This document shows, in pieces, positions 2,159 to 24,000 of a stretch of DNA of 24,000 nucleotides. A program made the position numbers and the translations under genes. The notes below the pieces were generated by a model, which was given only the letters and a program-made list of their open reading frames with translations, was not told the origin of the DNA and ran no database searches. The stretch's first letter is position 1, and every line of letters begins with the position of its first letter. Origin of the DNA: Opitutaceae bacterium (GTDB lineage: Bacteria; Verrucomicrobiota; Verrucomicrobiia; Opitutales; Opitutaceae); NCBI GenBank assembly GCA_027482905.1, contig JAIXVP010000091.1, forward strand, positions 7,968 through 31,967, given 5' to 3'.

Positions 2159-2206
2159 GGTGGAGAATCGATGGATTGAACCGCGGGAGCGAAAGGGAAG
2201 CCGTAG

Positions 2207-2244
2207 GCCGCCCGGCCGGGGCACACAATGTTTTCCCGGGCGGC
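2207..2244 (-). other. GC-rich stem-loop between the two paralogous membrane genes
   Basis: gccgcccgg (2207..2215) is the exact reverse complement of ccgggcggc (2236..2244), with a 20-nt loop. It starts 4 nt after the paralog A stop (2249..2251). No U-tract follows on the minus strand, so it is not a canonical intrinsic terminator. Confidence 0.25.
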
Positions 2245-2248
2245 TGCC

Positions 2249-2866
2249 TCAGTAACGCACCGGCACCACCATGTTGGTGGAGCGCAGCCAGTTCAGCAAT
2301 ACCGGCAGGGCGAGCAGGAAGATGACCGTGGCGAGAGTGAAAAGATTGCCCATAAAAACATAGCCGGCCCCCAGCACGGCCAGCCCCGCGACAAAGTAGC
2401 CTGCGACGAACCCGTTCATCGCGACCGCCGAGGCCACGCCCAGCACGAAAGCCGGTCCCCATACGGTCCACGGCAGCATCGCCGTGAGCATCCCCGCCAA
2501 AAACAACACCGGCGTCACCGTTTCCCGGTCCTTGGCGCGCAACCCCGTCTGCACCCAGAGAACCGCGAGCAACATGAGCGCGGTCAGGCCGATCTCGCCG
2601 TAGATCAGCCCCGGGCTGGCTTTTCGCACCGGACGCAGCCCTCCCAGCAACATCGAAGCGACCAGATGACCTCGCACCGGGTCGATCCAAAGCAGGGGAG
2701 CGCGCCACCAGCGGATACGCCGGCGGGTGAGGGTCGGATCCCGGCGCAGGACCTTGTTCCAAAGATCTTCGAAGGACAGATAACGGCAATCCGGGTTTGC
2801 GAGCAGGCGGGGCGGCACGAAGCCGAGCGCCAAGCCAAGCAGAAGCATATACCAGGTGGGAATCAT
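2249..2866 (-). CDS. Polytopic membrane protein of unknown family, paralog A of a tandem pair
   Basis: Track ORF of 205 aa beginning [15 protein letters not shown]. It is hydrophobic throughout. Motifs [25 protein letters not shown] and [10 protein letters not shown] are collinear with those of ORF 1520..2158. Confidence 0.6.
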
Positions 2867-2990
2867 CGAAACGTTTCATTCCTCTGCTGGCCAAAACTAA
2901 GCCTGTCCACCGCCCGCGTATTGTAAAAACACTTAGGATTTCCCCCGTAGGTCTTCACCTGACGCATGCCTTTGAGTTGCATGCTGAAGG

Positions 2991-4578: not shown

Positions 4579-5020
4579 CTACGGCGTGGTCACAATCACA
4601 CGGACAAAGGCCGGGGCGATCGAGAGTGCGGGGTGGATGCGGAGGGTGACCGTCTCGGTGACGCCGTCGGGGTTGGCGACTGTCGAGAGCACTTCGGGAG
4701 CGACGGCCGGGGCCGCCCAGGCGAGGAGGTCGGTCGACGTGACGACGGTGTAGGTAAGGCCGCCAGGATTGAGGAGGCGTCGGTGGGTGAAGACGAGGTG
4801 AGGCTGGCCCGTGGTGGGGTGGGCGGAGGTGACGCACGAGAGCGCGGCGGAGGCGTCGGTGACCTGAGGGTCGAGGCCGAAGGCGTATTCGAGCAGGTTG
4901 GATCGGCCGTCGCCATCGGGGTCGCCGAGGCGGCCGTGTTCGGCGAGGGACGAGGCGGGGTCGAGGCCGTGGGCGGTTTCCCAAGCGTCGGGGAGGCCGT
5001 CGGAGTCGGAGTCGGGGGGT
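4579..5020 (-). other. C-terminal module A: DSDSDGLPDAWE, then GDPDGDGRSNLLEYAFGLDP, then about 100 aa ending FVRVIVTTP
   Basis: Read from the translated C-terminus. The DPDGDG...LLEYAFGLDP coding stretch is at about 4867..4927. It is collinear with the C-terminus of the 14858..19573 protein. Confidence 0.6.
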
Positions 5021-8000: not shown

Positions 8001-11000
8001 ACCATTGATAGGTCGGCGAGCCGCCGGTGGCGGTCACGGTGAGGAACGCGTTGCGGGGGAAGAGCTGGGCGGTGGTGGAAGCGGGCTGGATGGTGATGGC
8101 CGGCGGGGCACCAATGGTGAGGGTCGCGGCCGTGCTGTCGGCCGTGCCGTGGGAATTGGACACGCGCACCCAGTAGGACGTGGTCGAGGTCAGGCCGGGT
8201 GGCGTGAAACTGGCGGCGGTGGCTCCGGCGACGGGCTGGGAGGTGTTACCCGCCGGTCCTCGAAACCACTGGTAGGCGAGCGGAGCCGGCCCTCCGGCCA
8301 CGACGAGCAGAGTGACGGTCTGGCCCGACAGCACGGTGGCGGAAGCGGGCTGACCGGTTATGCCGGGCTTGCGACTCAGCAACAAACTGTAACGGGAGGC
8401 GCCGGCGGTGTCGATCTGAACCGGGACGTAGCGATTGGTGGTGGTGCCATCGCCGAGCTGCCCGTTGACGTTGTAGCCGCAGGCCCAGAGCGAGCCGTCG
8501 GATTTAAGGAGAAAAACATGCAGGTCGCCCGCGAAGACGCGCCTGACCCCTGCGGCGAAATTGATGGGGGCGGTAAACACATTGCCCAGTTTCGGTCCTA
8601 TCTGGCCATAGTCGTTGTTGCCCAAGCCCCAGAGAGTGCCGTCCGTTTTCAGGTAGTAGTTGTTTCGTTCCCCGAGCGAGAAATCGATGACCTGGTCGGC
8701 GAGCTGGCGGGGCACGGGCCGGCTGGTCTGGGTGCCGTCGCCGAGCTGGCCATACCAGTTCCGCCCCATGGTCCAGAGGGTGCCGTCGGTCTTGAGGAAA
8801 AGCGTATGAAAGTAGCCGCCGCTTCGCACCGCCGCGACTCCGGACGCGACCTGGACGGGGACCGGGCGCCGGGTGGTGGTGCCATCGCCGAGCTGGCCTT
8901 CGGAGTTCCCGCCCACGCCCCAGAGCGTGCCGTCGGTTTTTAGGAACAGGGTGTTTTCCTGGCCCGCGGCGGCCTGAACGACGCCGGTGGCGAGCTGGAC
9001 CGGCGTGGCCCGGTCGGTGGTGGTGCCGTCGCCGAGCTGACCGGCGGTGTTGCGGCCCATCGCCCATAACGTGCCGTCCCTCTTCACAAACGTGCAGTGA
9101 TAAAACCCCATGGCGACGTGGGCGACATTGGTGGCGACCTGCACCGGTATGGAGCGGTCGGTGGATGTGCCGTCGCCGAGCTGGCCATAGCCGTTGTAGC
9201 CGCAGGTCCAGAGAGTGCCGTCGGATTTGAGGAAGGCCGTCTGACTCGAAGCCGAAACCTGGACCACATCGAAGACAGCCTGTGTCGGTGTGAGATGGTC
9301 GGTGGTGGTGCCGTCGGCGAGTTGTCCGCCGAAGTTTCCGCCCATGCCTTTGAGATTAAGCGCGGAGGAGGATTGCACCGCCACCGTCGCCCCGCTTTCG
9401 ACCGCGCCGACGTAGTTGGATACCCTTACCCAGAACGAACCGCCTTGGGTGAGGGGAGGAGTGAGGAACAGGGGGCCGGTCGCGCCCGCGACCGGCGCGG
9501 CGGTATCGCCAACAGCGCCGCGATACCATTGGTATGCGATGGTTCCGAAACCGCTCGCCTCGACCTTCAGCACGGCGTTCTCCATGGGGCCGACGGTCGA
9601 GTCGGACGGCGGCGCGAGGATCGTGGGCGGCGCCGGCCTCAGGACCGTAAGGAGCGTCGGGCGCGTGACGCTGCCCCGGCCATTGGTGAGATTGGCGATG
9701 GCAACGCCGTCGGTATAGGTGCCCTCCGGCAGGGTTCCGGCGGAGGGGGCCATGGTGACGGTGAGCGTGGTGGCGGCCCCGGGTGCGAGCTGACCGCCGG
9801 GAGATGAAAGGGTGAGCCAGGGCTGGGTCTTGAGCGCGGACCAGGTGATCGGAGTCTTGCTGAAGTTGGAGACGGTCCAAGTGGCGGAGGCGGGGTCGAA
9901 AGGCCCGCCGGCGGGACCGACGGGAGAGAATCCCGAAGGGCCGGCAACGAGTAGCTTGTCGAGCGCAAGCAGGGCCGAACGGGCGTTGAGGCGTCCGCCG
10001 GAAAGCGTGACGGAGGCGAGCGAGGGGCGGGGATCGACGGAGGAAAGCAGCAGGTGCTTCAACTGGGCGGCCGAAAGAGGCCCGGAGGCGTGTGAAAGCA
10101 CCAGCGCGGCGGTTCCGGCGACGTGGGGAGCGGCCATGGAGGTGCCGCTCATCGACTGATAGCCACCGTTGCGGACCGTGCTGTAGATGTTCAGACCTGG
10201 GGCGGCGAGATCGACGCTGGCGCCATAGTTGGAAAACACGGCGAGCTGATCGTCGTCGTCGGTCGCGGCCACCGAAACGATGTTGTCCAGTTCATAGCTG
10301 GCGGGGTAGCGCGGATCGAATTCCGAATCTATGCCATCGTTGCCGGCGCTGGCGACGAAGAGGCGCCCGGCCGCGCCTGCCGCGCCGATGGCGTCGCGCA
10401 GGGCCTGGGAGGAGCCGCCGCCGCCCCACGAGTTGGACGTCAGCTCGAAGCCCATGGCGGTGGCGTAGGAAACGGCCTCGACCGCGTCGGAGGTGAAGCC
10501 GGAACCGGGGGCGGAGAGAAATTTCAGGGGGACGAGGCTGACCTTCCAATTCACACCCACGACGCCGAGGGCATTTCCACCGACGGCGCCGATCGTGCCC
10601 GCGCAGTGGGTGCCGTGGTCATGGTCGTCCATGGGATCGTTGTCGTTGTTGAAAAAGTCCCAGCCATGCACGTCGTCCACGTAGCCGTTGCCGTCGTCAT
10701 CGACGAAGTTGCCGGCGATCTCGCCGGGGTTGGTCCAGATGTTGGCAGCGAGGTCGGGGTGGGTGTAGTCGATGCCGGTATCGATGACGCCGATCCGGAT
10801 GGAGCGGGAACCGGTGGCGATGTCCCAGGCTTCGGGGGCGTCGATATCGGCGTCGGCGGTGCCGCCGGTCTGGCCGGTGTTGTTCAGGCCGTAGAGTTGG
10901 GCGTAGGACGGGTCGTCGGGCGTGAGCGTCGTGTGGACGACAAAGTCCGGCTCGGCGATTTTCAGGAGGCCGCCGAGGTGGCGGAAATCGTCGATGGCGG

Positions 11001-11661
11001 CAGGAAGGGCGTCGAGGGTGCCGCCCGCAACGGCGACGAGCCAGGTGCCGGAGGCGGGTTTACTGGAGCGGACGGAACCTCCGGCGGCGGCGACGGCGGG
11101 CAGGAACGCCGCCTCGTCTACCCCGGGGGCGGGTTTGATGATGAGGTGGTCCGCCACCATGCCAAGCTGGGCGACGAGCGTGGCGCCGCCGGTGGCGGGA
11201 TCGAGTCGGTAAGCCTCCTCGAGACGGATAAAGGGATACTTTAGGCGGGCGTCGCGAACCAGCCGCACGCGCAGGCGCAGAGCGCGGTCGGGGAGGTCTT
11301 GCGCAGCCTCGGCAAGGACTTCGGCGCCGGCCCAGCGGTCGATCACGGCGGGCTTGGTCGATGAGGCGCGGAAATTGTCCGGCAGGCCCAAAAGACGCGG
11401 CAGGGGCTCCGGGGCGGGCGCGGCTCCGGGGACGGCAGGCGGGAGGGCGGCCGAGACAGGGCTCGCGGCCGGGGGAAGGACGGACACCGGCGTCGACGAA
11501 GCTCCGGCGGTCGTTGCGGTCGCCGGGGGCGGTGCGGGTTGGGAGGCGGCTAGCGAAATCGCCGGATTGCGCCGGGGTAGGGCCAACCAGAGACCTGCGA
11601 TACCTACGAGCAGGGCGAGCAGACCGGCGACGCCGCGGCGGGTGAAACGAGGGGAAGACAT
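4579..11661 (-). CDS. Giant (2360 aa) membrane-anchored or secreted S8 subtilisin-like serine peptidase with RCC1 beta-propellers and Ig-like domains
   Basis: The ATG is at 11661. The N-terminus has a hydrophobic anchor (GVAGLLALLVGIAGLWLAL) and a Pro/Ala-rich linker. A propeptide-like region ends in AEPDFVVH. The S8 triad motifs are GVIDTGIDYTHPDL, HGTHCAGTIGA and SGTSMAAPHVAG. These are followed by a beta-sandwich, six Ig-like domains with YQW[YF][RL]G, 21 RCC1-type blades (G.N..GQLGDGTT...P..V), and an Asp-rich C-terminal module. Confidence 0.9.
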   Translation of the reverse strand: MSSPRFTRRGVAGLLALLVGIAGLWLALPRRNPAISLAASQPAPPPATATTAGASSTPVSVLPPAASPVSAALPPAVPGAAPAPEPLPRLLGLPDNFRASSTKPAVIDRWAGAEVLAEAAQDLPDRALRLRVRLVRDARLKYPFIRLEEAYRLDPATGGATLVAQLGMVADHLIIKPAPGVDEAAFLPAVAAAGGSVRSSKPASGTWLVAVAGGTLDALPAAIDDFRHLGGLLKIAEPDFVVHTTLTPDDPSYAQLYGLNNTGQTGGTADADIDAPEAWDIATGSRSIRIGVIDTGIDYTHPDLAANIWTNPGEIAGNFVDDDGNGYVDDVHGWDFFNNDNDPMDDHDHGTHCAGTIGAVGGNALGVVGVNWKVSLVPLKFLSAPGSGFTSDAVEAVSYATAMGFELTSNSWGGGGSSQALRDAIGAAGAAGRLFVASAGNDGIDSEFDPRYPASYELDNIVSVAATDDDDQLAVFSNYGASVDLAAPGLNIYSTVRNGGYQSMSGTSMAAPHVAGTAALVLSHASGPLSAAQLKHLLLSSVDPRPSLASVTLSGGRLNARSALLALDKLLVAGPSGFSPVGPAGGPFDPASATWTVSNFSKTPITWSALKTQPWLTLSSPGGQLAPGAATTLTVTMAPSAGTLPEGTYTDGVAIANLTNGRGSVTRPTLLTVLRPAPPTILAPPSDSTVGPMENAVLKVEASGFGTIAYQWYRGAVGDTAAPVAGATGPLFLTPPLTQGGSFWVRVSNYVGAVESGATVAVQSSSALNLKGMGGNFGGQLADGTTTDHLTPTQAVFDVVQVSASSQTAFLKSDGTLWTCGYNGYGQLGDGTSTDRSIPVQVATNVAHVAMGFYHCTFVKRDGTLWAMGRNTAGQLGDGTTTDRATPVQLATGVVQAAAGQENTLFLKTDGTLWGVGGNSEGQLGDGTTTRRPVPVQVASGVAAVRSGGYFHTLFLKTDGTLWTMGRNWYGQLGDGTQTSRPVPRQLADQVIDFSLGERNNYYLKTDGTLWGLGNNDYGQIGPKLGNVFTAPINFAAGVRRVFAGDLHVFLLKSDGSLWACGYNVNGQLGDGTTTNRYVPVQIDTAGASRYSLLLSRKPGITGQPASATVLSGQTVTLLVVAGGPAPLAYQWFRGPAGNTSQPVAGATAASFTPPGLTSTTSYWVRVSNSHGTADSTAATLTIGAPPAITIQPASTTAQLFPRNAFLTVTATGGSPTYQWYRGAIGNTSAPVVGATSALLVVPSLTATTSFWVRITTVGGTVDSTAAAVTVPSPQSFNLLATGSNGSGQFGDGTAGSATVPRPVGAGVTHASAAYGHSLFVKSDGTLWAAGYNANGQLGDGTTTSRSTAVQISSQVARVSAGREHSLFLKTDGTLWGMGSNANNRFASGTTADRLSPVQIAAGVVHMSAGHRHSLFVKSDGTLWSVGENIYGQLGDGTTVSRSTPIQVATGVVQCAAGSDHSIFLKVDGSLWGMGYNYEGALGDGTSYSRLTPVLTNTGVTSIAAGIRTSFFIKADGSLWASGQNTDNKLGDGTYTNRLTPVQISTGVVQVFTGYYHNLFLKTNGSLWGMGNNYSGALGDGTTTSRAIPVQVATGIGNAVPGNFFSFFFSLKPAFVTQPAPASILYGESTTLSVVVNDQSPLTYQWYLGQAGSTTSPVAGATGASFTTPALTAPTSYWVRVTNSLGLTADSTTASVTVILNTPPSITAQPVPVATPFFASASFAVGAAGGTLSYQWYRGLSGDTSAPVSGANGPMLLTPPLLATTSYWVRVSNPVSAINSDTVTATVTPRPALNLKASGQNDYGQLGDGTTTQRNAPVSVATDVVAASTSSGHTLFIKTNATLWAVGNNNHGQLGDSTTTSRLTPVQVATNVIACFADSEISLFLKSDGSLWGMGYNSYWRLGSGSASNIQTPIQIATGVAHFAVGYTHTLFVKNDGTMWGMGTNFDGQLGIGAATGSTVPVQIAAGVSRVEARGQSSFFIKTNGTLWAMGDNYGGQLGDGTSTDIRSPVQISSDVISVATGGGHTLLIKRGGVLLGMGYRIGLGLPDTSLYMTPTQLATGITHAAAGFDHSKFIKTDGGLWAMGNNVAGQHGDGTTAWRYTPVQVSLAVLDVSLAYYHSLFLQSPPPNITSHPTSRTVKAGDVVSLTVAAVSPITASYQWYRGLSGDLTQPIASATSANYVTAPITTTNSYWVRVTNALGTADSQAALVTVLPPPDSDSDGLPDAWETAHGLDPASSLAEHGRLGDPDGDGRSNLLEYAFGLDPQVTDASAALSCVTSAHPTTGQPHLVFTHRRLLNPGGLTYTVVTSTDLLAWAAPAVAPEVLSTVANPDGVTETVTLRIHPALSIAPAFVRVIVTTP
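5020..9640 (-). repeat. Three tandem supermodules of about 1.5 kb, each encoding Ig-like domain, 7-bladed RCC1 propeller, Ig-like domain
   Basis: Approximate unit bounds are 8110..9640, 6560..8107 and 5020..6559. I counted 7 blades in each propeller from the translated protein. YQW[YF][RL]G markers lie near 9520, 8265, 8000, 6725, 6455 and 5180. A 20-nt exact repeat gccgcgataccattgatagg occurs at 6445..6464 and 7993..8012. Otherwise the units look diverged. Confidence 0.8.
9980..10860 (-). other. S8 peptidase catalytic domain within the giant ORF (approximate bounds)
   Basis: I mapped the catalytic codons by hand. Asp294 is at 10782..10780 (IDTG), His349 at 10617..10615 (HGTH) and Ser508 at 10140..10138 (GTSMA). 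The Asn of the oxyanion region is consistent with SNSWGG. Confidence 0.85.
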
Positions 11662-14857: not shown

Positions 14858-17800
14858 GTGAGAATACCCCCGCTCATTGCCGCAGCCTTGTCGTCGTTAT
14901 TGTTGGGCCCGGCCGCGCACGCCGTGCCCGCGTTTCCCGGCGCGGAGGGATTTGGCGCCAACGCCAAGGGCGCCCGGGCCTCGGCCAGCCCCACCGTCTA
15001 CCGCGTCACCAACCTGAACGATTCCGGCGCCGGCTCGCTCCGCGACGCGGTGAGCGCCTCCGGCCGCGTGGTGGTTTTTGATGTCGGCGGCATCATCCGG
15101 GTGGGCTCCCCGATCGTCTTCGCCTCCAATCTCACCATCGCGGGCCAGACCGCGCCGGGCGGCGGCGTCACCCTCTACGGCAACCGCGTGTCCTTTTCCG
15201 GCGCGAACAACACGATCTGCCGTTACGTGCGTTTCCGCATGGGCATCGACGGGGACGACGGCGCGGACGCGGTCGGCATAGCCAACGGCAGCGACATGAT
15301 CTTCGACCACGTATCCGCTTCCTGGGGACGCGACGAGACCTTCTCCATCAGCGGCGACGCCGCCATCCGCATCACGCTCCAGGACTGCCTGATCGCCCAG
15401 GGCCTGCGCATCCACTCCGCCGGCGGCCTGATGCAGACCTCCGGGGGCGTGAGCATTTTCCGCACGCTCTACGCCGACAACTACATGCGCAACCCCAAGG
15501 TCAAGGGGGTGAACGACTACGTGAACAACGTGGTCTACAACTGGGGTTCCGGCGGCGGCTACATCCCGGCGGGCGATTCGGCCGGCGACTCGTTCGCCAA
15601 CGTGGTGAAGTGCTACTTCATCGGCGGACCCGAATCCGGGGTCGGCCGTTCCCCTTTCACGTCGGGCAACACCAACTACCGTCTCTTCCACACGGGCAAC
15701 CTCCAGGATCTAGACCTCGACGGCGTGCTCGATGGCGTCGCGGTGACCAACACGAGTTTCCCTACCCTCCAGCTCGTCGGCACGCGCTTTGCCTACCCCG
15801 CGCCGACGACCGAACTCTCCGCCCCCGCCGCGCTCGCCTGGGTGTTGGATCGGGCCGGCGCCTCGCACCGCCGCGACCGCACGGACGATTACGTGGTGGC
15901 GGAGGCCCGCACCTACGGCACCGGCGGCGTCTTTATCTACGACGAAGCCGACATGGGCGGCGTCGGCACCGTCGCCGCCGGCCTGAAGCAACCCGACAAC
16001 GACAACGACGGCATGCCGGACTGGTGGGAACAGGCCGCCGGGACCAACCCCGCCGTCGCCGACGCGACCGTGCTCGGCGCCGACGGTTACCTGAACATCG
16101 AACGCTACCTCAACGCCCTCGTGGTCGGCGGCGTGCCCGGGGCCTTCATCACCGGCATCACGAGCGACACCGGCGCGTCCGCCTCCGACGGAATCACCTC
16201 CGACCGAATGCTCGTGCTGCGCGGCACCGCGCCCGTCGGATCCAGCGTTTCCCTGGCCCGCGCCGACCTCGGCGTGCTCGGCACGGTCGTCGCCGACGCG
16301 AACGGGCAATGGACCTACGATTACGCCGCCACGTCGCTGGCCGACCGGGTGTATGCGTTCACCGCCGGCGCCACGGTGGGCGGAGTCGTCACTCCGCCGT
16401 CGCCCGCGCTGGTCGTTCGTATCGACACCGTCGCCGCCCCCGCCCCGGCGATCACGGGCTTGAGCCTGGCCCCGGGGGCGGCGGTTTCCGGCACCGCCAC
16501 GCCGGGCGACACCGTTGCCGTAACCCTCGCCGGACAAGTGGTGGCCACCGGCGTGGCCGACGAGTTGGGCAACTGGACCGCGCCCTACACCGGACCCGCC
16601 CTCGGCGCGGGGCAAAAGACCTTTACCGCCGCCGCGACCGATCTGGCCGGCAATCCCGGCCCGGCCTCCGGCGCCTACGTCGTGGACACCGGCCTGGCCG
16701 CGCCGGTTTTCACCGCGATCAGCACCGACAGCGGCGCGTCCGCCTCCGACCGCCTGACCAACGACGCCACGCTGGTGTTGTCCGGCACCGCGCCGGCCGG
16801 CGCGACCGTCAGCGTCACTCGCGCGGGCGTCGGCGTCGTGGGCTCCGCGGTCGCGACCGGCGGCGCGTTTTCGTTCAGCTACGCCGCGACCACGCTGCCG
16901 GCCGGGACGCACACCTTCACCGCCACCGCCGGGCTCGCGGGTTCCGCCAGCCCGGTGTCCGCGCCCTTCGTGGCGACGATCGACACCACCGCCCCCGCCA
17001 TCGCCTCCCTGCGCCGACTCACGCCCGCGACCTACTCGACCAACGGCGGCGGCGTGGTCTACCGGGTCACCTTCGCCGAGCCCGTCACCGGCGTGGACTT
17101 GGCCGACTTCACGCTCACCCGGTCGGGCACCGCCGGCTCGCTCGCCTCGGTCGCGACGGTGAGTTCGACCGTCTACGACGTCTCCGCCGCGAATCTATCC
17201 GGCGACGGCACCGCGCGGCTGGACCTCAGCGCCAGCGGCACCGGCATCCTCGACCTCGCGGGCAACGCCGTCTCCGGCGGCTACACCGCCGGGCAAGCCT
17301 ACACCGTCCGCCTCGCCGGCAGCGGCGTCTGGATAAACCTCGATAATGACGGCCTCTGGAGCGACTCCGCCAACTGGGACGGCGGCCTACTCGCCGGCGC
17401 CACCGGCGCCACCGCCGACTTCGGCCTGCGCGATCTCGTCGCGAACACCACGCTGATCCTCGACTCCAATCGCACCCTAGGGCGTATCGTTTTCGGCGAT
17501 ACCGATTTCTCCACGCCGGCCGGCTGGACGGTCTCCGACGGCGGCGTTTCCTCACGTGTCCTCACCTTGGACGGCACCTCCACGCCGGTCATCCAGGTTG
17601 ACGCCGCCACCACGCCGGCCGGGGACACCACCGACGTCCCCGCCGCCAACGCCACCCCGCACCACCTCGCCGTCGCCCTGGCGGGCGGGAAGGGCTTCAC
17701 CAAAACGGGCGTCGGCACCTTGGAGCTGAACCGCCCCAACCCCGCGCTCGCCGGTGCGCTGACCATCTCGAAGGGCATCGTCCAGGTCGGCCCCGGCGGC

Positions 17801-19573
17801 ACGCTCGCGCCCGCCTCGGTGAGTATCGCCACCTCGCAACAACTCCGCGTCACGGGCGGCGCGTTCACCACCGCCGGCAACGTCTCGTGGACCTCCGGCA
17901 CCGGCACGGGCGTTATCGTGAGCGCCGGAACCGCGAGTTTCCAAAACATCGTGCCGTCCAACGCGCGCAACAGCTTCCTCCGCGTCACCGGCGGCGTGGT
18001 CACCGCGAAGGACCTTAACTTCCCCCGCAGCGGCGACTCGGAGGCACAGACCAGCGGGACCGGCGTATTGATTTCCGGCGGCGACACGACCTTCGCGAAC
18101 ATCGGCCTGGGCACAGTCGACTCGTGGGCCGGCATGACCATCTCGGGCGGAAAACTCACCGTGACCGGCACCCTGCACAACGGTTACCAGAAGACCGCCG
18201 GGCGCGGCGGGGTGATTTACCTTTCCGGCGGCGAACTCGCCGTGACCGGCGCGACCAACGGCCTGGTGATGGCGCGCAACCCCGGCGGCACGAACGCCAA
18301 CACCAACAACGTCGCCAAATTGATCATCACCGGCGGCGCCGCCAATCTCGCCAAACTCACGCTCGGCTACGACGCGACCTCGAGCGCCGGCTCCGCGAGC
18401 GTCACCGTGAGCACCGGAGAGCTGAACCTCGGCGCCGGCGGCATCGTGAAAAACGGCGCGGCGGGGCTCGCCTCCTCGTTGTCCTTCGCCAGCGGGACCC
18501 TCGGCGCCCTGGCCGACTGGAGCACCACGCATCCGCTTTCGATCACCGATACCTCCGCCACGCCGCTCTTCTCGATCCGCGCCGCCGGACCCGACGGCGC
18601 GCCGCACGACATCGCGCTGAACGGCGTCGTCTCCGGTGCGGGCGGCTTCAACAAGACGGGCGGCGGCACGCTGACCCTCTCCGCCGCCAACGCGGTGGCG
18701 GGCAACATCCACGTCAACGCCGGCACGCTCAACCTCACCGGCTCCCTCGCCGCCGCCTCCGGCCGGTCCCTCGTGGTCAACGCCGGCGGCACGCTCGCCG
18801 GCACCGGCACCTCGAACGTCCTGCTCGGCTTGTTCCCGGGCGGCACGGTCTCCCCGGGCGGAAACGCGGCGGGAACGCTCACCGTGGCGGGCGGGCGGAT
18901 CTCCGGCGGCTCCACCCTGCGTTTCAACCTGGGCGCGGGCGGCGACCAACTGGTCATCCCGAGCGGCTTTACCTATTTCGGTTCCGGCCCGGTGACCTTC
19001 GCCTTCACCCCGGGAACGCTCGTGGTTGGCACACCCTACACTTTGATCACCACGCCCGGCGGAACCGCCGGCATCACGACCGCCAACCTCGCCTACACCG
19101 GCTTGGGCTACGGCAAGGGGCACTTCACGATCGGAACGAGCGGCATCCAGTTCACGTTGGACGACGACGGGGTCGCGCTGGCGCCGTTCTACGATTGGTT
19201 GACCGGACGCGGGCTGGCCGCCGACCCGGCCGCCGCGACGGGCGATCCCGACGCCGACGGCATGGCGACGCTGCTCGAGTTCGTGTTCGGCCAGGATCCG
19301 CTGCTGCCCGACGTGGCGCAGCTACTCGCCACCACCATCGTGGCGAACCAGGAGACGTATCCGGCGATCAGTTACCGACGTCGCCGGGGCCGGGGTGGCA
19401 TTGCCGTGGCGGTCGAGGCCGCGCGCGACCCGGGTTTCGTCACCCCGCTGGCGCTGGTGGACGTATCGGCCCCGGCCGAGCCGGACGGCTTCGACCGTGT
19501 GCTGGTGCGCACGGCGCTGCCGATGTCGAGCGAGGCGCGTCAGTTTTTCCGCGTCCGGGCCAGCTTGCCCTGA
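14858..19573 (+). CDS. Giant (1571 aa) secreted PL1-like pectate-lyase-fold protein fused to bacterial Ig-like repeats and autotransporter-associated beta-strand repeats
   Basis: The GTG at 14858 gives the signal peptide MRIPPLIAAALSSLLLGPAAHA. The N-terminal domain is AFPGAEGFGANAKG...VYRVTNLNDSGAGSLRDAV...LTIAGQTAPGGGV...RYVRFR...IFDHVSASWGRDE...MRNPKVKG..YVNNVVYNW, the pattern of PL1-type pectate lyases. It is followed by DNDNDGMPDWWE, adhesin-type Ig repeats, GFTKTGVGTLELN and GFNKTGGGTLTLS repeats, and a C-terminal module. Confidence 0.85.
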   Translation: MRIPPLIAAALSSLLLGPAAHAVPAFPGAEGFGANAKGARASASPTVYRVTNLNDSGAGSLRDAVSASGRVVVFDVGGIIRVGSPIVFASNLTIAGQTAPGGGVTLYGNRVSFSGANNTICRYVRFRMGIDGDDGADAVGIANGSDMIFDHVSASWGRDETFSISGDAAIRITLQDCLIAQGLRIHSAGGLMQTSGGVSIFRTLYADNYMRNPKVKGVNDYVNNVVYNWGSGGGYIPAGDSAGDSFANVVKCYFIGGPESGVGRSPFTSGNTNYRLFHTGNLQDLDLDGVLDGVAVTNTSFPTLQLVGTRFAYPAPTTELSAPAALAWVLDRAGASHRRDRTDDYVVAEARTYGTGGVFIYDEADMGGVGTVAAGLKQPDNDNDGMPDWWEQAAGTNPAVADATVLGADGYLNIERYLNALVVGGVPGAFITGITSDTGASASDGITSDRMLVLRGTAPVGSSVSLARADLGVLGTVVADANGQWTYDYAATSLADRVYAFTAGATVGGVVTPPSPALVVRIDTVAAPAPAITGLSLAPGAAVSGTATPGDTVAVTLAGQVVATGVADELGNWTAPYTGPALGAGQKTFTAAATDLAGNPGPASGAYVVDTGLAAPVFTAISTDSGASASDRLTNDATLVLSGTAPAGATVSVTRAGVGVVGSAVATGGAFSFSYAATTLPAGTHTFTATAGLAGSASPVSAPFVATIDTTAPAIASLRRLTPATYSTNGGGVVYRVTFAEPVTGVDLADFTLTRSGTAGSLASVATVSSTVYDVSAANLSGDGTARLDLSASGTGILDLAGNAVSGGYTAGQAYTVRLAGSGVWINLDNDGLWSDSANWDGGLLAGATGATADFGLRDLVANTTLILDSNRTLGRIVFGDTDFSTPAGWTVSDGGVSSRVLTLDGTSTPVIQVDAATTPAGDTTDVPAANATPHHLAVALAGGKGFTKTGVGTLELNRPNPALAGALTISKGIVQVGPGGTLAPASVSIATSQQLRVTGGAFTTAGNVSWTSGTGTGVIVSAGTASFQNIVPSNARNSFLRVTGGVVTAKDLNFPRSGDSEAQTSGTGVLISGGDTTFANIGLGTVDSWAGMTISGGKLTVTGTLHNGYQKTAGRGGVIYLSGGELAVTGATNGLVMARNPGGTNANTNNVAKLIITGGAANLAKLTLGYDATSSAGSASVTVSTGELNLGAGGIVKNGAAGLASSLSFASGTLGALADWSTTHPLSITDTSATPLFSIRAAGPDGAPHDIALNGVVSGAGGFNKTGGGTLTLSAANAVAGNIHVNAGTLNLTGSLAAASGRSLVVNAGGTLAGTGTSNVLLGLFPGGTVSPGGNAAGTLTVAGGRISGGSTLRFNLGAGGDQLVIPSGFTYFGSGPVTFAFTPGTLVVGTPYTLITTPGGTAGITTANLAYTGLGYGKGHFTIGTSGIQFTLDDDGVALAPFYDWLTGRGLAADPAAATGDPDADGMATLLEFVFGQDPLLPDVAQLLATTIVANQETYPAISYRRRRGRGGIAVAVEAARDPGFVTPLALVDVSAPAEPDGFDRVLVRTALPMSSEARQFFRVRASLP
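14924..15870 (+). other. Pectate-lyase (PL1-like) right-handed beta-helix catalytic domain (approximate bounds)
   Basis: Motifs are as listed for the parent CDS. The FDH.SASW..DE and RNP.....NN..YNW segments correspond to the conserved vWiDH and RxPxxR regions of PL1, with Lys at the second basic position (RNPKVK). Confidence 0.65.
16147..16990 (+). repeat. Three adhesin-type bacterial Ig-like repeats
   Basis: Repeats 1 and 3 are clearly homologous: ITSDTGASASDGITSDRMLVLRGTAPVGSSVSLAR...GQWTYDY and ISTDSGASASDRLTNDATLVLSGTAPAGATVSVTR...GAFSFSY. An exact 18-nt repeat ggcgcgtccgcctccgac lies at 16172..16189 and 16733..16750. The middle repeat is GTATPGDTVAVTLAGQVVATGVADELGNWTAPY. Confidence 0.7.
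17330..19120 (+). repeat. Beta-helix region with autotransporter-associated beta-strand repeats (approximate bounds)
   Basis: It shows recurrent Gly/Thr/Ala-rich beta-strand periodicity. Hallmark units are GKGFTKTGVGTLELNRPNPALAGALTISKGIVQV (about 17686..17810) and GAGGFNKTGGGTLTLSAANAVAGNIHVNAGTLNLTG (about 18637..18750). Confidence 0.65.
19175..19573 (+). other. C-terminal module B: GDPDADGMATLLEFVFGQDP, then about 95 aa ending FFRVRASLP
   Basis: Collinear with module A of the S8 giant protein: GDPDGDGRSNLLEYAFGLDP vs GDPDADGMATLLEFVFGQDP, and AFVRVIVTTP vs QFFRVRASLP. Confidence 0.6.
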
Positions 19574-19600
19574 TAGCCGCAACAGCCAGTGGCGAACCGG

Positions 19601-20371
19601 CTAGGTGGCCCGCCGAAGGGGGAAAATCGAAACGCTCACACCGGGCGAGGTGTGGGCGAGATCGGCAGGGCGAGAGGGCGCCGGGAAACCGTTGTCGGCA
19701 AACAGGGAGGTTTCGGCGGTGGTGACGGCGGCGCGGGCGAGCGGGTAAGGCGTGTGCCAGACCCGGCCGCTGGCAAGCGAGCCGTCGCGGCGGCGGGAGA
19801 AAAGCAGGTAGCGCTCGGCGAGGAAGTATTCGAGCGTGCCGGGTTCGGAGGGCCTGAAGGGGGCGGCGGGCGCGTAGGCGAAAGCGTTGGGTGCGCCGCC
19901 GGGGCGGCGCGAGTGGAACCGGGCAGGCCCGGTCGGCGCGGCGGGGCGTTTGCCGTGCTGGTGCGCGAAAACGTAGGGTAGGGAAAACAAGGTGCGGGCG
20001 AGCGCGACGGCGACGTGGTTGTTGCAGTCGAGGGAGTAGAACCAGACGCCGGGCGTGCCATCGGCGGTGTGGACATAGGTGCGCAGGTTCAGTTCGAGGA
20101 ACCAAGACAGGCCCGGAACGGGCGGGAGAAAACGCGGGCGGACACGATCCATCCAGAAGGGAACGACTCCGAGGTAGGCGCGGTCATCGTGCGTATCGAC
20201 GAAGAGCCCGGGCGGAAGGGTGGCCTGGATGGCGGCGGGGTCCCAGGCCCAGTGGAGAAAGAGCAGGTGGCGCCAGCTCTGGAACATCACCGGGCTGGAA
20301 GCGGGACGGAGACGCAGGGCCTCGCGTTGAGCGGCGGAAGGGCGGGAAAAGCGGGATGAGCCGGCGGTCAT
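19601..20371 (-). CDS. DUF2071 (YqjF-like) family protein
   Basis: The ATG at 20371 (MTAGSS...) was chosen inside track ORF 19601..20380. FQSWRHLLFLHWAWDPAAIQATLPPGLFVDTHDDRAYLGVVPFWM matches the W..L.F.HW..D...L...LP.GL..D...G.A.....F.M signature I associate with DUF2071. Confidence 0.7.
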   Translation of the reverse strand: MTAGSSRFSRPSAAQREALRLRPASSPVMFQSWRHLLFLHWAWDPAAIQATLPPGLFVDTHDDRAYLGVVPFWMDRVRPRFLPPVPGLSWFLELNLRTYVHTADGTPGVWFYSLDCNNHVAVALARTLFSLPYVFAHQHGKRPAAPTGPARFHSRRPGGAPNAFAYAPAAPFRPSEPGTLEYFLAERYLLFSRRRDGSLASGRVWHTPYPLARAAVTTAETSLFADNGFPAPSRPADLAHTSPGVSVSIFPLRRAT

Positions 20372-20428
20372 GCGCGGCAACTTGCGCGCCTCGTGCGCGA
20401 TTGCAAAGCGACCGGTCGCCGTCCCGCC

Positions 20429-22051
20429 TCAATTCCGACTGGCGCGGGCGAGGCGGATGGTCTCGGCGGCGGTGAGCGTGCGCGCGCCGGCCGCGCGGGT
20501 CTCGCGCGCGATCCGCCAGGCCAGATGCCACTGCCGGCACAGCACCGCCCAGCCGTGGAGCGGCCCGTGACGGGGGTCGTAGATGCTGGTGGCCTCGGAA
20601 GTGAGGCCGTTGAGCTCGATCACGGTGAACTCGCCGCGGCGGAAGGCCTCCGCGTCGGGCGTGCGCACGTCGTAGCGGCCGAAATGGAAACCCTGGAAAA
20701 CCCGGCTGACGCGTTCGACCTCGTCGAGCAGGGCCGGGGTCTCGTGGTGCGCGCCGTCGAGGAAGAGCGAGCCGCGGCAGTGGGTGCCCAGATCGGTCAG
20801 CGGGATGCGTTCGCCGGCGGCCGGCACCCCGTCGCGGCGGGCTGCGAACTGGCGCAGGAAAAAATCCGCCATGCACACGGCTCGGTCGTCGGCGAGAATC
20901 AGCGTTTCCAGATTCCGGATACCGTCGCCGGTCAGCGTGGGGGTGCGCTTCTCGGTGATGGCGAAGATCCGGCCGCGCGTTTCAGACGGAAGGCGGACGT
21001 AGAAGACGCCAAACTCGATGCCGGGCACGTAGGCCTGGGCGATGAGCGGGCCGGGGGCGGCGGCGAGGGCGGCCTCGGCGGCGGCGCGGTCGCGGGCGAT
21101 GACCACGCCGCCGCCGCGTTCGCCGACGTCGGGCTTGAGCACGACGGGAAAGGGCGCGGGGCGGGCGGCGAGGAAGGCGTCGAGCGCGGCGCGGCGGGCG
21201 GAGGCTTCGCCGGGCGCGATCAGGGCCCAGGGCGCGACCGCCCCGCTGGGATCGAGGGCGCGGAGGATGGCCGATTTGGACTCACCGACCAGGCCGCCGC
21301 CGGCGTCGATGCCGGGGTTCACGGCGGTGAACCAGGTGAGGCAGCGGACGCGCAGACCCAGCCAGGTGATCCACAGCACGACCGGCGGGTAGACGGCCCA
21401 CATGGGCCAGAATTCCCAACGAACGAGGCGGCGCCACCGTGAGAGCAGAAGCCGGCGGCCGCGCCAGGTGGCGGCCTGAAGACCGACACGGACGAGCAGC
21501 CAGACCAGCAGGCCGCCGAGGACGAGGCCGGGCGCGGCGGCGGTCCAGGTTTGCAACCAGGCGCGGGCGGTGTCGCCGAAGACGGCGGCGGCGCCGACCA
21601 GCAGGGGCGTCCAGAGCGCGCAGGCGAGGGTCAGCCAGAGGGCGAGGCGGGCGAAGGGCACGCGTAGGAGGCCGGCGGCGACGTAGGTCGGCAGGCGCGT
21701 GCCGGGCAGAAACCGGGTGGTGAAAATCAGGATCGCGCCGCGCTCGGATAGCCAGAGGGCGGCGCGGTCCACGCCCTCGCGCGTGACGAACCAGCGCAGC
21801 GGGGCGCGGTCCAGCCAGCGCGCGCCGAGCCAACGCCCGGCGGCGACGAGAGCGACGTCCCCCACGAGGATACCGACGAGGCAAGCGAAGGTGGCGGCGG
21901 GGAAGGAAATCGCGCCCTGAGCGACCAGCAGGCCGGCCGCGATGCAGGCGAGGTCCTCGCTGGCGAGCGTCGCGAGCGCGAGGCCAAGCAGTGTCCACGG
22001 ACCGCCCTCGGCCGCGAGAGCAAGACTGCGATCCACGAAGGCGGCGAGCAT
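20429..22051 (-). CDS. Fusion protein: N-terminal DedA/VTT (SNARE-associated) membrane domain plus C-terminal ATP-grasp carboxylate-amine ligase domain
   Basis: The ATG at 22051 (MLAAFVDRSL...) lies 14 nt after the upstream stop. The DedA motifs are ASEDLACIAAGLLVAQG and IFTTRFLPGTRLPTYVAAGLL, followed by further TM segments. The ATP-grasp region is FPVVLKPDVGERGGGVVIA...AQAYVPGIEFGVFYVR...EKRTPTLTGDGIRNLETLI...GRYDVR...FTVIELNG. The 174-aa N-terminal extension of track ORF 20429..22573 overlaps the NRDE gene in another frame and was rejected. Confidence 0.75.
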   Translation of the reverse strand: MLAAFVDRSLALAAEGGPWTLLGLALATLASEDLACIAAGLLVAQGAISFPAATFACLVGILVGDVALVAAGRWLGARWLDRAPLRWFVTREGVDRAALWLSERGAILIFTTRFLPGTRLPTYVAAGLLRVPFARLALWLTLACALWTPLLVGAAAVFGDTARAWLQTWTAAAPGLVLGGLLVWLLVRVGLQAATWRGRRLLLSRWRRLVRWEFWPMWAVYPPVVLWITWLGLRVRCLTWFTAVNPGIDAGGGLVGESKSAILRALDPSGAVAPWALIAPGEASARRAALDAFLAARPAPFPVVLKPDVGERGGGVVIARDRAAAEAALAAAPGPLIAQAYVPGIEFGVFYVRLPSETRGRIFAITEKRTPTLTGDGIRNLETLILADDRAVCMADFFLRQFAARRDGVPAAGERIPLTDLGTHCRGSLFLDGAHHETPALLDEVERVSRVFQGFHFGRYDVRTPDAEAFRRGEFTVIELNGLTSEATSIYDPRHGPLHGWAVLCRQWHLAWRIARETRAAGARTLTAAETIRLARASRN

Positions 22052-22065
22052 GGCGGGGGCGCGGA

Positions 22066-22794
22066 TCAGGCCGGGCGCGGCAGGGTCCAAACCCGCACAG
22101 GACTCGCCTCGGGATAAAACGTCTCGTAGGCCACGGTGGCGGCGGAGGGGCGGACGTTCACGTGGATGAGACTGCGGGTGGCGGCGTCGGGGCGCGCCAT
22201 GCGCACGGAATGGGCGGGGCGGGTAGGATCGTGAATGCGGTGCCAGGCGGCGAGATCGGCTACGGAGGGAGCGTCGGCGCGGGCGGCGCGTAAGGCGGCG
22301 AAGTTTTCCAGACGCCAGTCCACCACCTCGGCGGTGGCGAAGGAGGACGAGGAGAGGCAGGCGGGCGAGGCCAGCGCCCCGGCGGTGAACGCGATGCCGT
22401 TCCAGTGCCAGTGGCTGGCGGAGGCGTCCGGCGCAACGGCCACGAGGTGGAAAGGCGGTAGTTCGACGAGAGCGACGGCGGCGAGGCGGGTGGCGACGGC
22501 GGCGAGGTCGCGGGCGGGGGCGAGGTCGAGCACGAGGCGGCCGCGGCTGCGGGCGGTGCCGGCCGGGCGCCACGAGGAGGCGTAGTCGTTTAGCAGCGCG
22601 AGCGTGAGCCCGGCGGCGCTGACCAGCAGCCAGGTGCCGCCGGCGTCGGGATCACGCGGGGCGAGCCAGCGGAGGCCTTCGCTTTCACCGAACGCGGGCG
22701 GCGTCTCGACCGCGCGCGGGTGGCGTTCGTCGCGGTTAAAAAAGAGATCGTAACCGAGGCGGTCGGACGCGGCGGTCCAGGTGAAGGTGCACAT
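22066..22794 (-). CDS. NRDE-family (TANGO2-like, DUF833) protein
   Basis: The protein starts MCTFTW, giving Cys2 as in NRDE/TANGO2 proteins. It carries the eponymous motif in DLFFNRDER, then GGTWL. The length is 242 aa. A GGGAGA Shine-Dalgarno-like element lies about 12 nt upstream of the ATG at 22794. Confidence 0.8.
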   Translation of the reverse strand: MCTFTWTAASDRLGYDLFFNRDERHPRAVETPPAFGESEGLRWLAPRDPDAGGTWLLVSAAGLTLALLNDYASSWRPAGTARSRGRLVLDLAPARDLAAVATRLAAVALVELPPFHLVAVAPDASASHWHWNGIAFTAGALASPACLSSSSFATAEVVDWRLENFAALRAARADAPSVADLAAWHRIHDPTRPAHSVRMARPDAATRSLIHVNVRPSAATVAYETFYPEASPVRVWTLPRPA

Positions 22795-22812
22795 CGGCCC
22801 GGCGAATCTCCC

Positions 22813-23340
22813 TCAGCCGGCGGCCTGGGTGGCCTGGTGGCGAAGGGTGGAGGGCGCCATGCCGAAATCGGCGGCGGGCTGGTGGCCGAGGCGGGTGCAG
22901 ATGACCGCGATGAGCGCGTAGTGGTGGATGGTGTGGCTCAGGAGGAACTCGAGTTCGCGCGACACACTGGAGGCGGACCAGGAGTCGGCGCCGGAAGAGG
23001 GCGGATTTTCCATCCGGACGCGCACGGGGTGATCGGCGGAGGAGGAGGCGAGGGTCGCCTCGAGGCGCTCGGCGACGAGCGCGAGGCAGGCGCGGGCGTG
23101 GGCGCACTCGCGCTCGATGCGGAGATCGCGGGCACGTTTCTCGTAGTCGATGCCGGCGGCGTCGCCGAGGCCGTCGAGGAAACTCGTGTAGTGCTCAAGG
23201 ACGTGGCGGAGGTGTCCTCCGACGGTGGAGTTGAACACGGCGGGATCGCGGGCGGCGTAACCGGCGGGGTCGAGGGTGGAGAGGAGCGCGATGCCCTGCT
23301 GGACGACGGCGAGGTTGGCGCGGATGGCTTGGGCGATCAT
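22813..23340 (-). CDS. DinB-superfamily (DinB_2-like) four-helix-bundle protein
   Basis: The His pattern is typical of the DinB metal triad: GGHLRHVLEHY near the N-terminus and LSHTIHHYALI near the C-terminus. The protein is 175 aa, and the ATG is at 23340. Confidence 0.7.
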   Translation of the reverse strand: MIAQAIRANLAVVQQGIALLSTLDPAGYAARDPAVFNSTVGGHLRHVLEHYTSFLDGLGDAAGIDYEKRARDLRIERECAHARACLALVAERLEATLASSSADHPVRVRMENPPSSGADSWSASSVSRELEFLLSHTIHHYALIAVICTRLGHQPAADFGMAPSTLRHQATQAAG

Positions 23341-23390
23341 GGGCGGTTTGGATCCGGTTGACCGGTGGAGCGAGTGCGTCCGGGGACTTG

Positions 23391-23834
23391 TTATTTTTCA
23401 AGGAGCTTCGGCCAGTTGGCGTTTCCGGCGGCGATCAGGCCGGGCACGTCCTTTTCCCATTTCTTCTGAACCTCGAGGCTGTAATTCAGGTAAAGTTTGC
23501 CCTCCACGATCTTCCAGGCGGCGGGATCGATGCCGGCGGTGTAGCCCTGGCTGACGGCCCAGGCGCAGTAGCCGCCGAACTGGGGCGCGTATTTCGCGGG
23601 TTCGGCCTTGAACAGCGCGAGGTGCTCGGCGGAGGCGAAGCGCCAGGTGGCGCCCTGCCATTCGAAGGAAAACGCCTTCTCGCCTTCGACGGGTTTGGCG
23701 TCGGTGAAGTAGGCGACGGGGTCGTAGCCCTTGATGGCGACGCCGAAGAGGGTGGTGTTGACCGGCTTTTCGGCGCGGAGGAACGGCGTGCAGACGAGGG
23801 CGAGGCCGGCGAGGAGGAGGCGGAGGATTTTCAT
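23391..23834 (-). CDS. Secreted YHS-domain protein, the Cys form of the family named 'YHS domain-containing (seleno)protein'
   Basis: The signal peptide is MKILRLLLAGLALVCTPFLRA. It is followed by AIKGYDPVAYF...G...F...W.GA.WRFAS.EH...F..P.KYAPQFGGYCAW, the YHS-domain pattern. The protein is 147 aa with a TAA stop at 23391. Confidence 0.8.
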   Translation of the reverse strand: MKILRLLLAGLALVCTPFLRAEKPVNTTLFGVAIKGYDPVAYFTDAKPVEGEKAFSFEWQGATWRFASAEHLALFKAEPAKYAPQFGGYCAWAVSQGYTAGIDPAAWKIVEGKLYLNYSLEVQKKWEKDVPGLIAAGNANWPKLLEK

Positions 23835-23859
23835 GATGAGGTGGAAAACGTGGATTGGT

Positions 23860-24000
23860 TCAGAGGCGGGCGCCGATCACGGGCAGCGTGCGGCGATGCA
23901 AAAACAGCAGGAGGGCGCTGCCGGCCCAGACCACGACGGCGAGGGCGAAGAGGGTGCCGCCGTCGTCCTGGACCACGATGCCGAGTTTCGTGACATGGAA
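23860..24000 (-). CDS. C-terminal 46 codons of a hypothetical, probably membrane, protein; the gene continues past the window end
   Basis: My hand translation of the minus strand gives ...FHVTKLGIVVQDDGGTLFALAVVVWAGSALLLFLHRRTLPVIGARL*, with the stop at 23860..23862. It contains a hydrophobic segment. It lies 25 nt upstream of the YHS gene on the same strand. No family was recognised. Confidence 0.35.
   Translation of the reverse strand, partial: FHVTKLGIVVQDDGGTLFALAVVVWAGSALLLFLHRRTLPVIGARL

Follow-up and report, generated by a model that had tools for sequence, protein, structure and literature searches.

Analysis of a 24,000-nucleotide stretch of Opitutaceae bacterium DNA (assembly GCA_027482905.1, contig JAIXVP010000091.1, positions 7,968 to 31,967; hereafter the window) points to an undescribed route of membrane-lipid modification. 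Its core is a module of three genes coding for a DinB/YfiT-fold metalloprotein (DinB), a TANGO2-family protein with an NRDE motif (NRDE) and a fusion of a VTT (DedA) membrane domain with an ATP-grasp ligase (the fusion). These genes recur side by side in several phyla, and genes homologous to three classes of aminolipid synthases adjoin them there. Based on this gene context and on the domains of the proteins, we propose that the module, controlled by an extracytoplasmic function (ECF) sigma factor, ligates an amine onto the carboxylate of an aminolipid and flips the product, a reading to which we give a probability of about one half.

Recurrence of the module

Scanning one genome per GTDB species with an alignment of the fusion gave relatives in 271 genomes, and 80 loci were examined. 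They were assigned to Verrucomicrobiota (Opitutales, Puniceicoccales, Verrucomicrobiales), Acidobacteriota, Gemmatimonadota, Planctomycetota and Bacteroidota. All stop-to-stop open reading frames (ORFs) of the loci were searched with the window proteins, and families were counted in the 56 loci that had at least 5 kb upstream and at least 2.5 kb downstream of the fusion. DinB was present in 46 of these 56 loci and NRDE in 44, followed by a DoxX-family membrane protein (DoxX, 30 loci), a secreted YHS-domain protein (YHS, 22 loci, mostly Opitutales-like) and an ECF sigma factor (19 loci). DinB and NRDE adjoin the fusion in Verrucomicrobiota, Acidobacteriota, Gemmatimonadota and Planctomycetota. 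The sigma, anti-sigma, DoxX and YHS genes form the typical set of the Opitutales-like loci, and DoxX also lies directly beside the fusion in loci of Gemmatimonadota and Acidobacteriota. The order is permuted in some loci (DoxX, DinB, fusion, NRDE) with the gene set retained.

The reverse scan, of metagenomes and anchored on DinB, gave 514 relatives. The fusion was found in 23 of the 24 loci with enough flanking sequence, NRDE in 18 and an aminolipid synthase in 16. Look-ups anchored on NRDE revealed DinB-NRDE pairs whose stop and start codons overlap and, at lower similarity, some unrelated NRDE contexts too. The arrangement is conserved in other genomes far beyond chance. An earlier note on this DNA, made from the letters alone, had proposed that co-occurrence of at least three of its families across phyla would support a system; DinB, NRDE and the VTT::ATP-grasp fusion co-occur in just this way, with DoxX and YHS as frequent partners. 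That no system exists, and that six unrelated genes were packed by chance in a compact genome, is hardly credible: the lineage-specific DUF2071 neighbour of the window would agree with it, but the same families are adjacent across phyla, in permuted orders, often with overlapping codons and around three different anchors, they share a promoter motif, and the co-occurrence counts already contradict chance packing.

The closest genome relative of the window (L007, CAMCZZ010000012.1) is 89% identical on the fusion and has the same gene order, DUF2071 included. It was deposited as an 'Akkermansia muciniphila' metagenome-assembled genome (MAG), a label that is probably wrong because its other close relatives are all Opitutaceae; L036, L044 and L066 likewise carry doubtful-looking labels (Clostridia, Heliobacteriaceae and Chloroflexaceae). 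Cultured carriers of the module belong to Horticoccus, Cerasicoccus and Rariglobus, and Horticoccus sp. 23ND18S-11 (L028) holds the complete set, including the OlsB- and OlsA-like genes described below.

Aminolipid synthase homologues beside the module

Clustering of all ORFs around the fusion showed that an OlsB-like GNAT protein (Pfam Acetyltransf_5/FeeM type) and an OlsA-like PlsC-type acyltransferase were each present in 42 of the 56 fusion loci. The GNAT neighbour matched the NCBIfam OlsB model at 6e-40 (137 bits, cutoff 350) and the PlsC neighbour matched the OlsA model at 9e-43 (146 bits, cutoff 300); judged by these scores, both are homologues of the ornithine-lipid enzymes and not proven orthologues. 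In Opitutales-like loci the pair follows the fusion, and in the other phyla it precedes DinB. Five loci without the OlsB- and OlsA-like genes (L045, L049, L050, L065 and L070) have an OlsF-like bifunctional synthase (about 1e-115) adjoining the module instead. Two loci anchored on NRDE and lacking the fusion are of the same kind. One (L089:4508-7693) carries an OlsH-like GH3 gene (6e-108), DinB, 34% identical to the window DinB, and NRDE; the other (L088:5848-10112) carries OlsB-like, OlsA-like, DinB and NRDE genes and an ArgE-like gene, a homologue of acetylornithine deacetylase, with 4-nt overlaps among the first three genes. That three non-homologous synthase classes (OlsBA-, OlsF- and OlsH-like) lie beside the module is the strongest evidence of a functional link. 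The earlier suggestion of an envelope modification went in the right direction.

In Gemmatimonadota, Planctomycetota and some Acidobacteriota, three conserved extra genes precede the module (Table 1). They code for a small transmembrane (TM) protein of 88-115 aa, a Ferric_reduct(MsrQ-like)::Rieske membrane protein and an N-terminally anchored, Cys-containing protein of 265 aa; the first and the third matched no Pfam or NCBIfam family even at E<=5. A Rieske::FMN_red fusion often follows the module in loci with the three extra genes. Taken together, the extra genes resemble a chain for electron transfer across the membrane that is attached to the lipid genes.

Domains of the fusion protein

The membrane part of the fusion matched Pfam VTT_dom (PF09335) at 3.5e-13 (50.6 bits, gathering threshold 33.9), with hydrophobic segments at residues 21-70, 128-158 and 176-194. 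Its best NCBIfam match was the undecaprenyl-phosphate (UndP) transporter UptA (NF052604) at 2.2e-15, with 57.2 bits against a cutoff of 250. The ATP-grasp part reached no Pfam threshold and gave only weak NCBIfam matches. A profile built from an alignment of 22 homologues (A1) was searched against the PDB and matched 7ta5, deposited as 'glutathione synthase', at 3.1e-09 over profile positions 291-481, the G domain of cyanophycin synthetase (CphA1) at 1e-06 and GshAB at 2.8e-04; a weak similarity to D-Ala-D-Ala ligases was also seen. Residues K306, G310, G313, G315, E479 and N481 were invariant in the 22 sequences, and by inspection K306 and E479-x-N481 fit the ATP- and Mg-binding motifs of ATP-grasp enzymes (KP..G..G.GV and E-x-N). 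In the reactions of GshAB and of cyanophycin synthetase G domains, an amino acid is ligated to the C-terminal carboxylate of a peptide. The fusion is not itself a cyanophycin synthetase by family score (20-23 bits against cutoffs of 850-877), and only its ATP-grasp part aligned.

Fusion homologues numbered 3666 at E<=1e-5 among the candidates scored. The ATP-grasp region alone had 982 relatives at E<=1e-30 among representatives of 50%-identity clusters; among the best 150 of these, 76 were 700-950 aa and 52 were 451-699 aa long. An N-terminal alpha/beta hydrolase domain is present on the fusion in 33 of the 56 loci, and the alpha/beta hydrolase OlsI is a known aminolipid O-acyltransferase (PMC12971839).

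According to the earlier note, none of the families in the cluster has an established bacterial function, the generic ligase chemistry of ATP-grasp apart. This was too strong for DedA, since members of the family have been described as UndP flippases and others as moving phosphatidylethanolamine (PMC10193950).

The UndP flippases suggest another reading of the fusion, a polyprenyl-phosphate-linked wall modification in which DedA would flip UndP or a lipid-linked precursor and the ATP-grasp domain would extend a lipid-II-type peptide by an amino acid, as the D-aspartate ligases of peptidoglycan synthesis, also ATP-grasp enzymes, do. The match to UptA, the established UndP flippases of the DedA family and the weak similarity to D-Ala-D-Ala ligases all agree with such a role. 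The UptA score is nevertheless far from its cutoff, other DedA members move phosphatidylethanolamine instead, and mur, fem and glycosyltransferase genes are not conserved beside the module while three types of aminolipid synthases are, and we consider a wall modification improbable.

A shared putative promoter motif

Over 2926 nt the Logan contig L001 matches the window with 100% identity, and it continues upstream of the cluster. Beyond the window end, DoxX is preceded on the same strand by an ECF sigma gene and by a gene for a 248-aa protein. The latter has one TM helix, which fits a single-pass anti-sigma factor, and it matched no Pfam or NCBIfam family even at E<=5.

Comparison of the regions upstream of the sigma gene gave the motif GGAATA-N14-19-[GTC]CTC[TA], located about 35 nt upstream of this gene in 17 loci. 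Ten loci have the same motif in front of DoxX, against 0.095 expected by chance, and five loci in which DinB-NRDE is split off have it in front of DinB (0.14 expected). A copy with one mismatch precedes the DoxX gene of the window genome (L001:6092-6120, approximately window coordinate 24,310-24,335, some 300 nt past the end). With only 5-40 nt between the candidate promoter and the DoxX start, the leader would be very short. The distribution of the motif fits an autoregulated ECF regulon that would cover the whole gene set.

Structure and relatives of DinB and NRDE

The DinB protein matched Pfam DinB_2 at 1.1e-06 (29.5 bits, gathering threshold 24.8), and its AlphaFold2 model (pLDDT, the predicted local distance difference test, 94.3) is a DinB/YfiT four-helix bundle. 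Residues H43, H46, H50, H136, H139, H140, D65, E76 and E129 were invariant; they include the metal-binding triad H46, H136 and H140 and three further His, and in the model the six His sit on two helices. The nearest solved folds were YizA, YfiT and DR0053 with a TM-score of about 0.6 (0.60-0.65 for YizA and YfiT), at Foldseek E-values of only 3e-03 to 1e-02 and 14-17% identity to the solved members. No oxygenase-type family was matched in Pfam or in the structure search.

The NRDE protein matched Pfam TANGO2 (PF05742) at 1.3e-08 (35.8 bits, gathering threshold 22.6). It starts with Met-Cys, and M1, C2 and N20-R21-D22-E23 are conserved in an alignment of 60 sequences. The predicted model (pLDDT 96.8) has a Cys-type N-terminal nucleophile (Cys-Ntn) fold. 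Foldseek placed it nearest to human TANGO2 (8sv7 and 9bwa, E about 1e-10, TM-score 0.66) and also to CV2077, followed by penicillin V acylases, bile-salt hydrolases, acyl-CoA:isopenicillin N acyltransferase and a phospholipase-B-like protein. These next-nearest proteins are enzymes of the Cys-Ntn type and either cleave amide-linked acyl groups or transfer them. In human TANGO2, the NRDE motif mediates the binding of acyl-CoA (PMC11867700).

The earlier note had drawn a parallel to low-molecular-weight thiol and ergothioneine pathways, in which the ATP-grasp ligase would make a Cys peptide, DinB would be a thiol transferase or resemble a sulfoxide synthase and NRDE would be an EgtC-like amidohydrolase. 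Thiol transferases of the DinB fold have an established function, so that here too the earlier statement on function was too strong. Several features recall these pathways: bacillithiol and mycothiol transferases and the N-domains of EgtB and OvsA share the DinB fold (weak matches, E 0.04-0.4), the ligase domain resembles GshAB and the entry deposited as glutathione synthase, the nucleophile of NRDE is an N-terminal Cys, and the redox-type DoxX and YHS, the latter with a Cys that is selenocysteine in relatives, are linked to the module. However, EgtA, EgtD, EgtE, an FGE-sulfatase domain and a Cys-ligase gene were all absent among the conserved neighbours, which are lipid acyltransferases instead. 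DinB is a single domain of 175 aa without FGE, NRDE is of the TANGO2 family and not a class II amidotransferase, and the ligase is tethered to the membrane by a lipid-transporter domain. The parallel is thus unsupported by the gene context, and we regard a thiol pathway as quite improbable.

A reading that combines both themes is a redox-active, possibly thiol-bearing aminolipid head group, exported by DedA as a lipid-anchored antioxidant or electrophile trap of the envelope. DinB would be its transferase and NRDE a conjugate amidase, with DoxX and the Cys/Sec YHS (elsewhere Ferric_reduct-Rieske and Rieske-FMN_red) recycling it from the quinone pool under control of an ECF stress sigma factor. 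We consider this speculative and rather improbable as well.

The properties of DinB and NRDE also agree with a processing of aminolipids that involves no ligation to the head group. DinB could be a metal-dependent oxidase or hydroxylase fed by the redox partners, or NRDE together with the alpha/beta hydrolase could deacylate or remodel the lipid, and ATP-grasp would make a soluble precursor (e.g. a dipeptide) that is acylated by the OlsB-like enzyme. The redox partners (DoxX, YHS, Ferric_reduct-Rieske, Rieske-FMN_red) do recur, this DinB subfamily has six invariant His on two helices, NRDE resembles amidases, and hydroxylation of ornithine lipids is known, as is the O-acyltransferase OlsI. The tethering of ATP-grasp to a transporter domain is hard to explain with a soluble substrate, and DinB lacks an oxygenase-type match; we hold this reading to be clearly on the unlikely side.

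Proposed function of the module

Under the ligation and flipping that we propose, the cluster of the window would be the distal part of an envelope operon under ECF sigma control, presumably responding to envelope stress, that comprises the genes for sigma, anti-sigma, DoxX, YHS and the three module proteins. The latter would form its core and work on an acyloxyacyl amino-acid lipid of the ornithine-lipid type. The DedA domain would hold the cytoplasmic ATP-grasp domain at the membrane, where the latter would turn the free carboxylate on the head group of the aminolipid into an acyl-phosphate. Ligation of an amine or amino acid at this position would yield a lipid of the dipeptide or amide type, which the fused DedA domain would then move to the outer leaflet. 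NRDE and the His-rich DinB metalloprotein may tailor, edit or recycle the head group, while DoxX and the periplasmic Cys protein YHS may act as a redox accessory pair. The observations behind this proposal are the gene order, the family assignments, the linkage to aminolipid synthase genes across phyla and the shared ECF-type motif; substrate, product, transport direction and the parts played by DinB, NRDE, DoxX and YHS are inferred.

Reactions of this kind have some background in lipid biochemistry. The serine-adding step of Ser-Gly lipid synthesis is not known to have an assigned gene. A 2026 review states that Ser-Gly and Orn-Ser-Gly lipids exist, that ATP-dependent transfer of taurine to the carboxyl of ornithine lipid (cerilipin) is known biochemically, and that the gene of the cerilipin activity was still unknown (PMC12971839).

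Several observations weigh against this proposal. All OlsB-, OlsA-, OlsF- and OlsH-like neighbours stay below the NCBIfam equivalog cutoffs, and none of these genes was found in the window, in L001 or in L007 within the available flanking DNA, so that for the window genome the lipid link is by homology only. The best named match of the DedA domain is a UndP transporter, and that match is itself far below cutoff. Several loci carry DinB and the fusion without NRDE, some of the MAG taxonomic labels are doubtful, and human TANGO2 has been reported as a binder, not an enzyme (PMC11867700). The recurrent redox partners, DoxX and YHS and in other phyla the Ferric_reduct-Rieske and Rieske-FMN_red proteins, are not explained by simple ligation and flipping.

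Gene layout of the window

Five ORFs are complete in the region 19601-24000 and a sixth is present with its 3' end, all on the minus strand (Table 1). Re-derivation of the coordinates gave intergenic gaps of 25, 50, 18, 14 and 57 nt, exactly as in the earlier note; the last gap, between the fusion and DUF2071, is 57 nt with the ATG start of DUF2071 at 20371 and 48 nt with its TTG start. Each of the family assignments of that note was verified with Pfam or NCBIfam, and with the profile of 22 homologues in the case of ATP-grasp. The promoter scan found no promoter-like site in the cluster region. Three terminator-like sites were detected, at the level of shuffled controls and all within genes, with none between genes. 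No Rfam family was found in the window, and the region after DUF2071 folded no better than shuffled sequence. The single operon-like unit that had been suggested is supported.

Table 1. Coordinates of the genes and domains of the cluster in the window, and of related features in other loci
Feature	Position	Strand	Remarks
DoxX-family membrane protein gene, 3' end	23860..24000	-	Stop codon 23860-23862; runs off the window
Secreted YHS-domain protein, 147 aa	23391..23834	-	Pfam YHS, NCBIfam NF041384
DinB/YfiT-fold metalloprotein, 175 aa	22813..23340	-	Pfam DinB_2
NRDE/TANGO2-family Cys-Ntn protein, 242 aa	22066..22794	-	Pfam TANGO2
VTT(DedA)::ATP-grasp fusion, 540 aa	20429..22051	-	ATG at 22051; module anchor
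VTT/DedA membrane domain, fusion residues 40-154	21590..21934	-	Pfam VTT_dom
C-terminal ATP-grasp ligase region, fusion residues 201-540	20432..21451	-	Profile against PDB
DUF2071 protein, 259 aa (TTG)	19601..20380	-	Pfam DUF2071
DUF2071 protein, alternative start ATG 20371, 256 aa	19601-20371	-	
Candidate ECF-type promoter GGAATAA-N16-GCTCTCA	L007:7718; L014:4782 and 7595		
Candidate ECF-type promoter, further sites	L027:4778 and 7649; L028:6115 and 7601		
Extra redox-type genes	L058:3325-5957; L061:3671-6003 and 11987-13159		
Extra redox-type genes, further loci	L048, L060, L063, L071-L073, L076, L082, L084, L086, L132		

The DUF2071 ORF matched its Pfam family at 1e-66, with a weak ADC match besides. 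It lies downstream of the fusion in the window and in L007 only (2 of 81 loci); the remaining 79 genome loci and the metagenome loci lack it. The earlier note had counted it as a member of the cluster; with one occurrence among the 56 well-flanked loci besides the window, it was rejected as a member of the system. DUF2071 is a co-oriented, lineage-specific neighbour, a local add-on and not part of the conserved module.

The window includes only 46 residues of DoxX. The full gene codes for 144 aa (L001:6132-6566) and starts about 294 nt past the window end. The complete protein matched Pfam DoxX (PF07681) marginally, with 25.7 bits against a cutoff of 23.6, and its hydropathy suggests about four TM helices. 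The YHS protein matched Pfam YHS at 1.6e-07 and NCBIfam NF041384, 'YHS domain-containing (seleno)protein', at 4.6e-51 (171.8 bits, cutoff 70). It begins with a signal peptide (hydrophobic segment at residues 1-19). Alignment confirmed the conserved Cys that had been noted in GGYCAW: Cys90 is present in at least 90% of 32 sequences, and the window copy is Cys. The further claim that this residue is selenocysteine (Sec) in some relatives is implied by the NCBIfam name and by reported YHS-domain selenoproteins (PMC1976440), but no Sec (TGA) form of GGYCAW was found in any locus examined.

Three other large genes were seen in the window. A 1571-aa protein (14858-19573, plus strand) with bacterial Ig-like domains (Big_13, Big_6) and a PATR autotransporter-type repeat is encoded by a gene that converges on DUF2071, with 27 nt between the stop codons and no terminator-like structure. 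A 2360-aa protein (4579-11661, minus strand) carries a subtilase S8 domain, many RCC1 repeats (RCC1-like beta-propellers) and Ig-like CHU_C-associated domains, and from these domains it is taken as an unusual giant protease, presumably located at the surface or secreted. An 836-aa ORF (384-2894, minus strand) has a C-terminal NAD-dependent epimerase/dehydratase domain (residues 486-766) and about 480 N-terminal residues without a Pfam match; in DNA of such high GC content, the assigned TTG start may lie upstream of the true one.

Shadow ORFs of 100-700 aa, in other frames of real genes and on both strands, occur at positions 19300-24000 of the window and in most of the loci (about 70% GC). ORF lists alone mislead here because, upon neighbour clustering, such shadow ORFs form conserved pseudo-families, and several apparent neighbour families were discarded as overlapping-frame shadows of real genes.

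Comparison with known systems

Each protein of the module belongs to a known superfamily, and by profile score all fall short of the cutoffs of characterised equivalogs. Their combination belongs to no described aminolipid, MprF, cyanophycin, glutathione or ergothioneine system. Searches of open-access full text and bioRxiv gave no description of the module, no report connecting aminolipids with DedA::ATP-grasp fusions, with NRDE or with this DinB subfamily, and none on NRDE in the context of DinB and the fusion. Amino-acid lipids are widespread and linked to stress, and the elaboration and transport of their head groups are largely without known genes. In the module, a concrete candidate for a ligase acting on aminolipid head groups is physically joined to a candidate flippase, and its ATP-grasp family of about 980 50%-identity clusters (E<=1e-30) is found in poorly studied soil and freshwater phyla. 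If the proposal is true, bacterial TANGO2/NRDE proteins would gain their first functional context, and the substrates of DedA proteins would include a new class. Since cultured carriers exist, the proposal can be tested directly.

The closest solved relatives of the ligase domain are the cyanophycin synthetase G domain, GshAB and 7ta5; unlike cyanophycin synthetase, the fusion has neither an M nor an N domain and is joined to a DedA membrane domain. DinB shares the four-helix-bundle fold and the canonical His positions with bacillithiol and mycothiol S-transferases and with the N-domain of EgtB, but it differs from the DinB/YfiT metalloproteins in three extra invariant His, and no thiol pathway is nearby. 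The Pfam match, the Met-Cys start, the NRDE motif and the fold of the NRDE protein all agree with the Cys-Ntn proteins of the TANGO2 and choloylglycine-hydrolase type. TANGO2 is without an established enzymatic activity, and the bacterial subfamily described here is set apart by its DinB and fusion neighbours.

The partner hydrolase of MprF has an alpha/beta fold. MprF itself is an aminoacyl-phosphatidylglycerol synthase fused to a flippase (PMC11980842). The likeness of the fusion to it is one of architecture only: a cytoplasmic enzyme that modifies the head group is joined to a membrane domain for lipid translocation, in many cases with an alpha/beta hydrolase as well. No homology to MprF was detected, as Pfam gave VTT_dom alone in the fusion, and MprF uses aminoacyl-tRNA on phosphatidylglycerol whereas the fusion would use ATP-grasp chemistry on a carboxylate.

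Synthases homologous to those of the ornithine-lipid and aminolipid pathways (OlsB/OlsA, OlsF, OlsH/OlsI; GlsB/GlsA) adjoin the module in most relatives, and many fusions carry an alpha/beta hydrolase domain, the fold of OlsI of these pathways. The aminolipid pathways described so far, in contrast, include no DinB, NRDE, DedA or ATP-grasp protein (review PMC12971839). The nearest biochemical counterpart is the cerilipin-forming activity, which is of the same reaction type as that predicted for the fusion, an ATP-dependent amide bond on the carboxylate of an aminolipid; no link to Gluconobacter was seen, and the carriers of the module belong to Verrucomicrobiota, Acidobacteriota, Gemmatimonadota and Planctomycetota.

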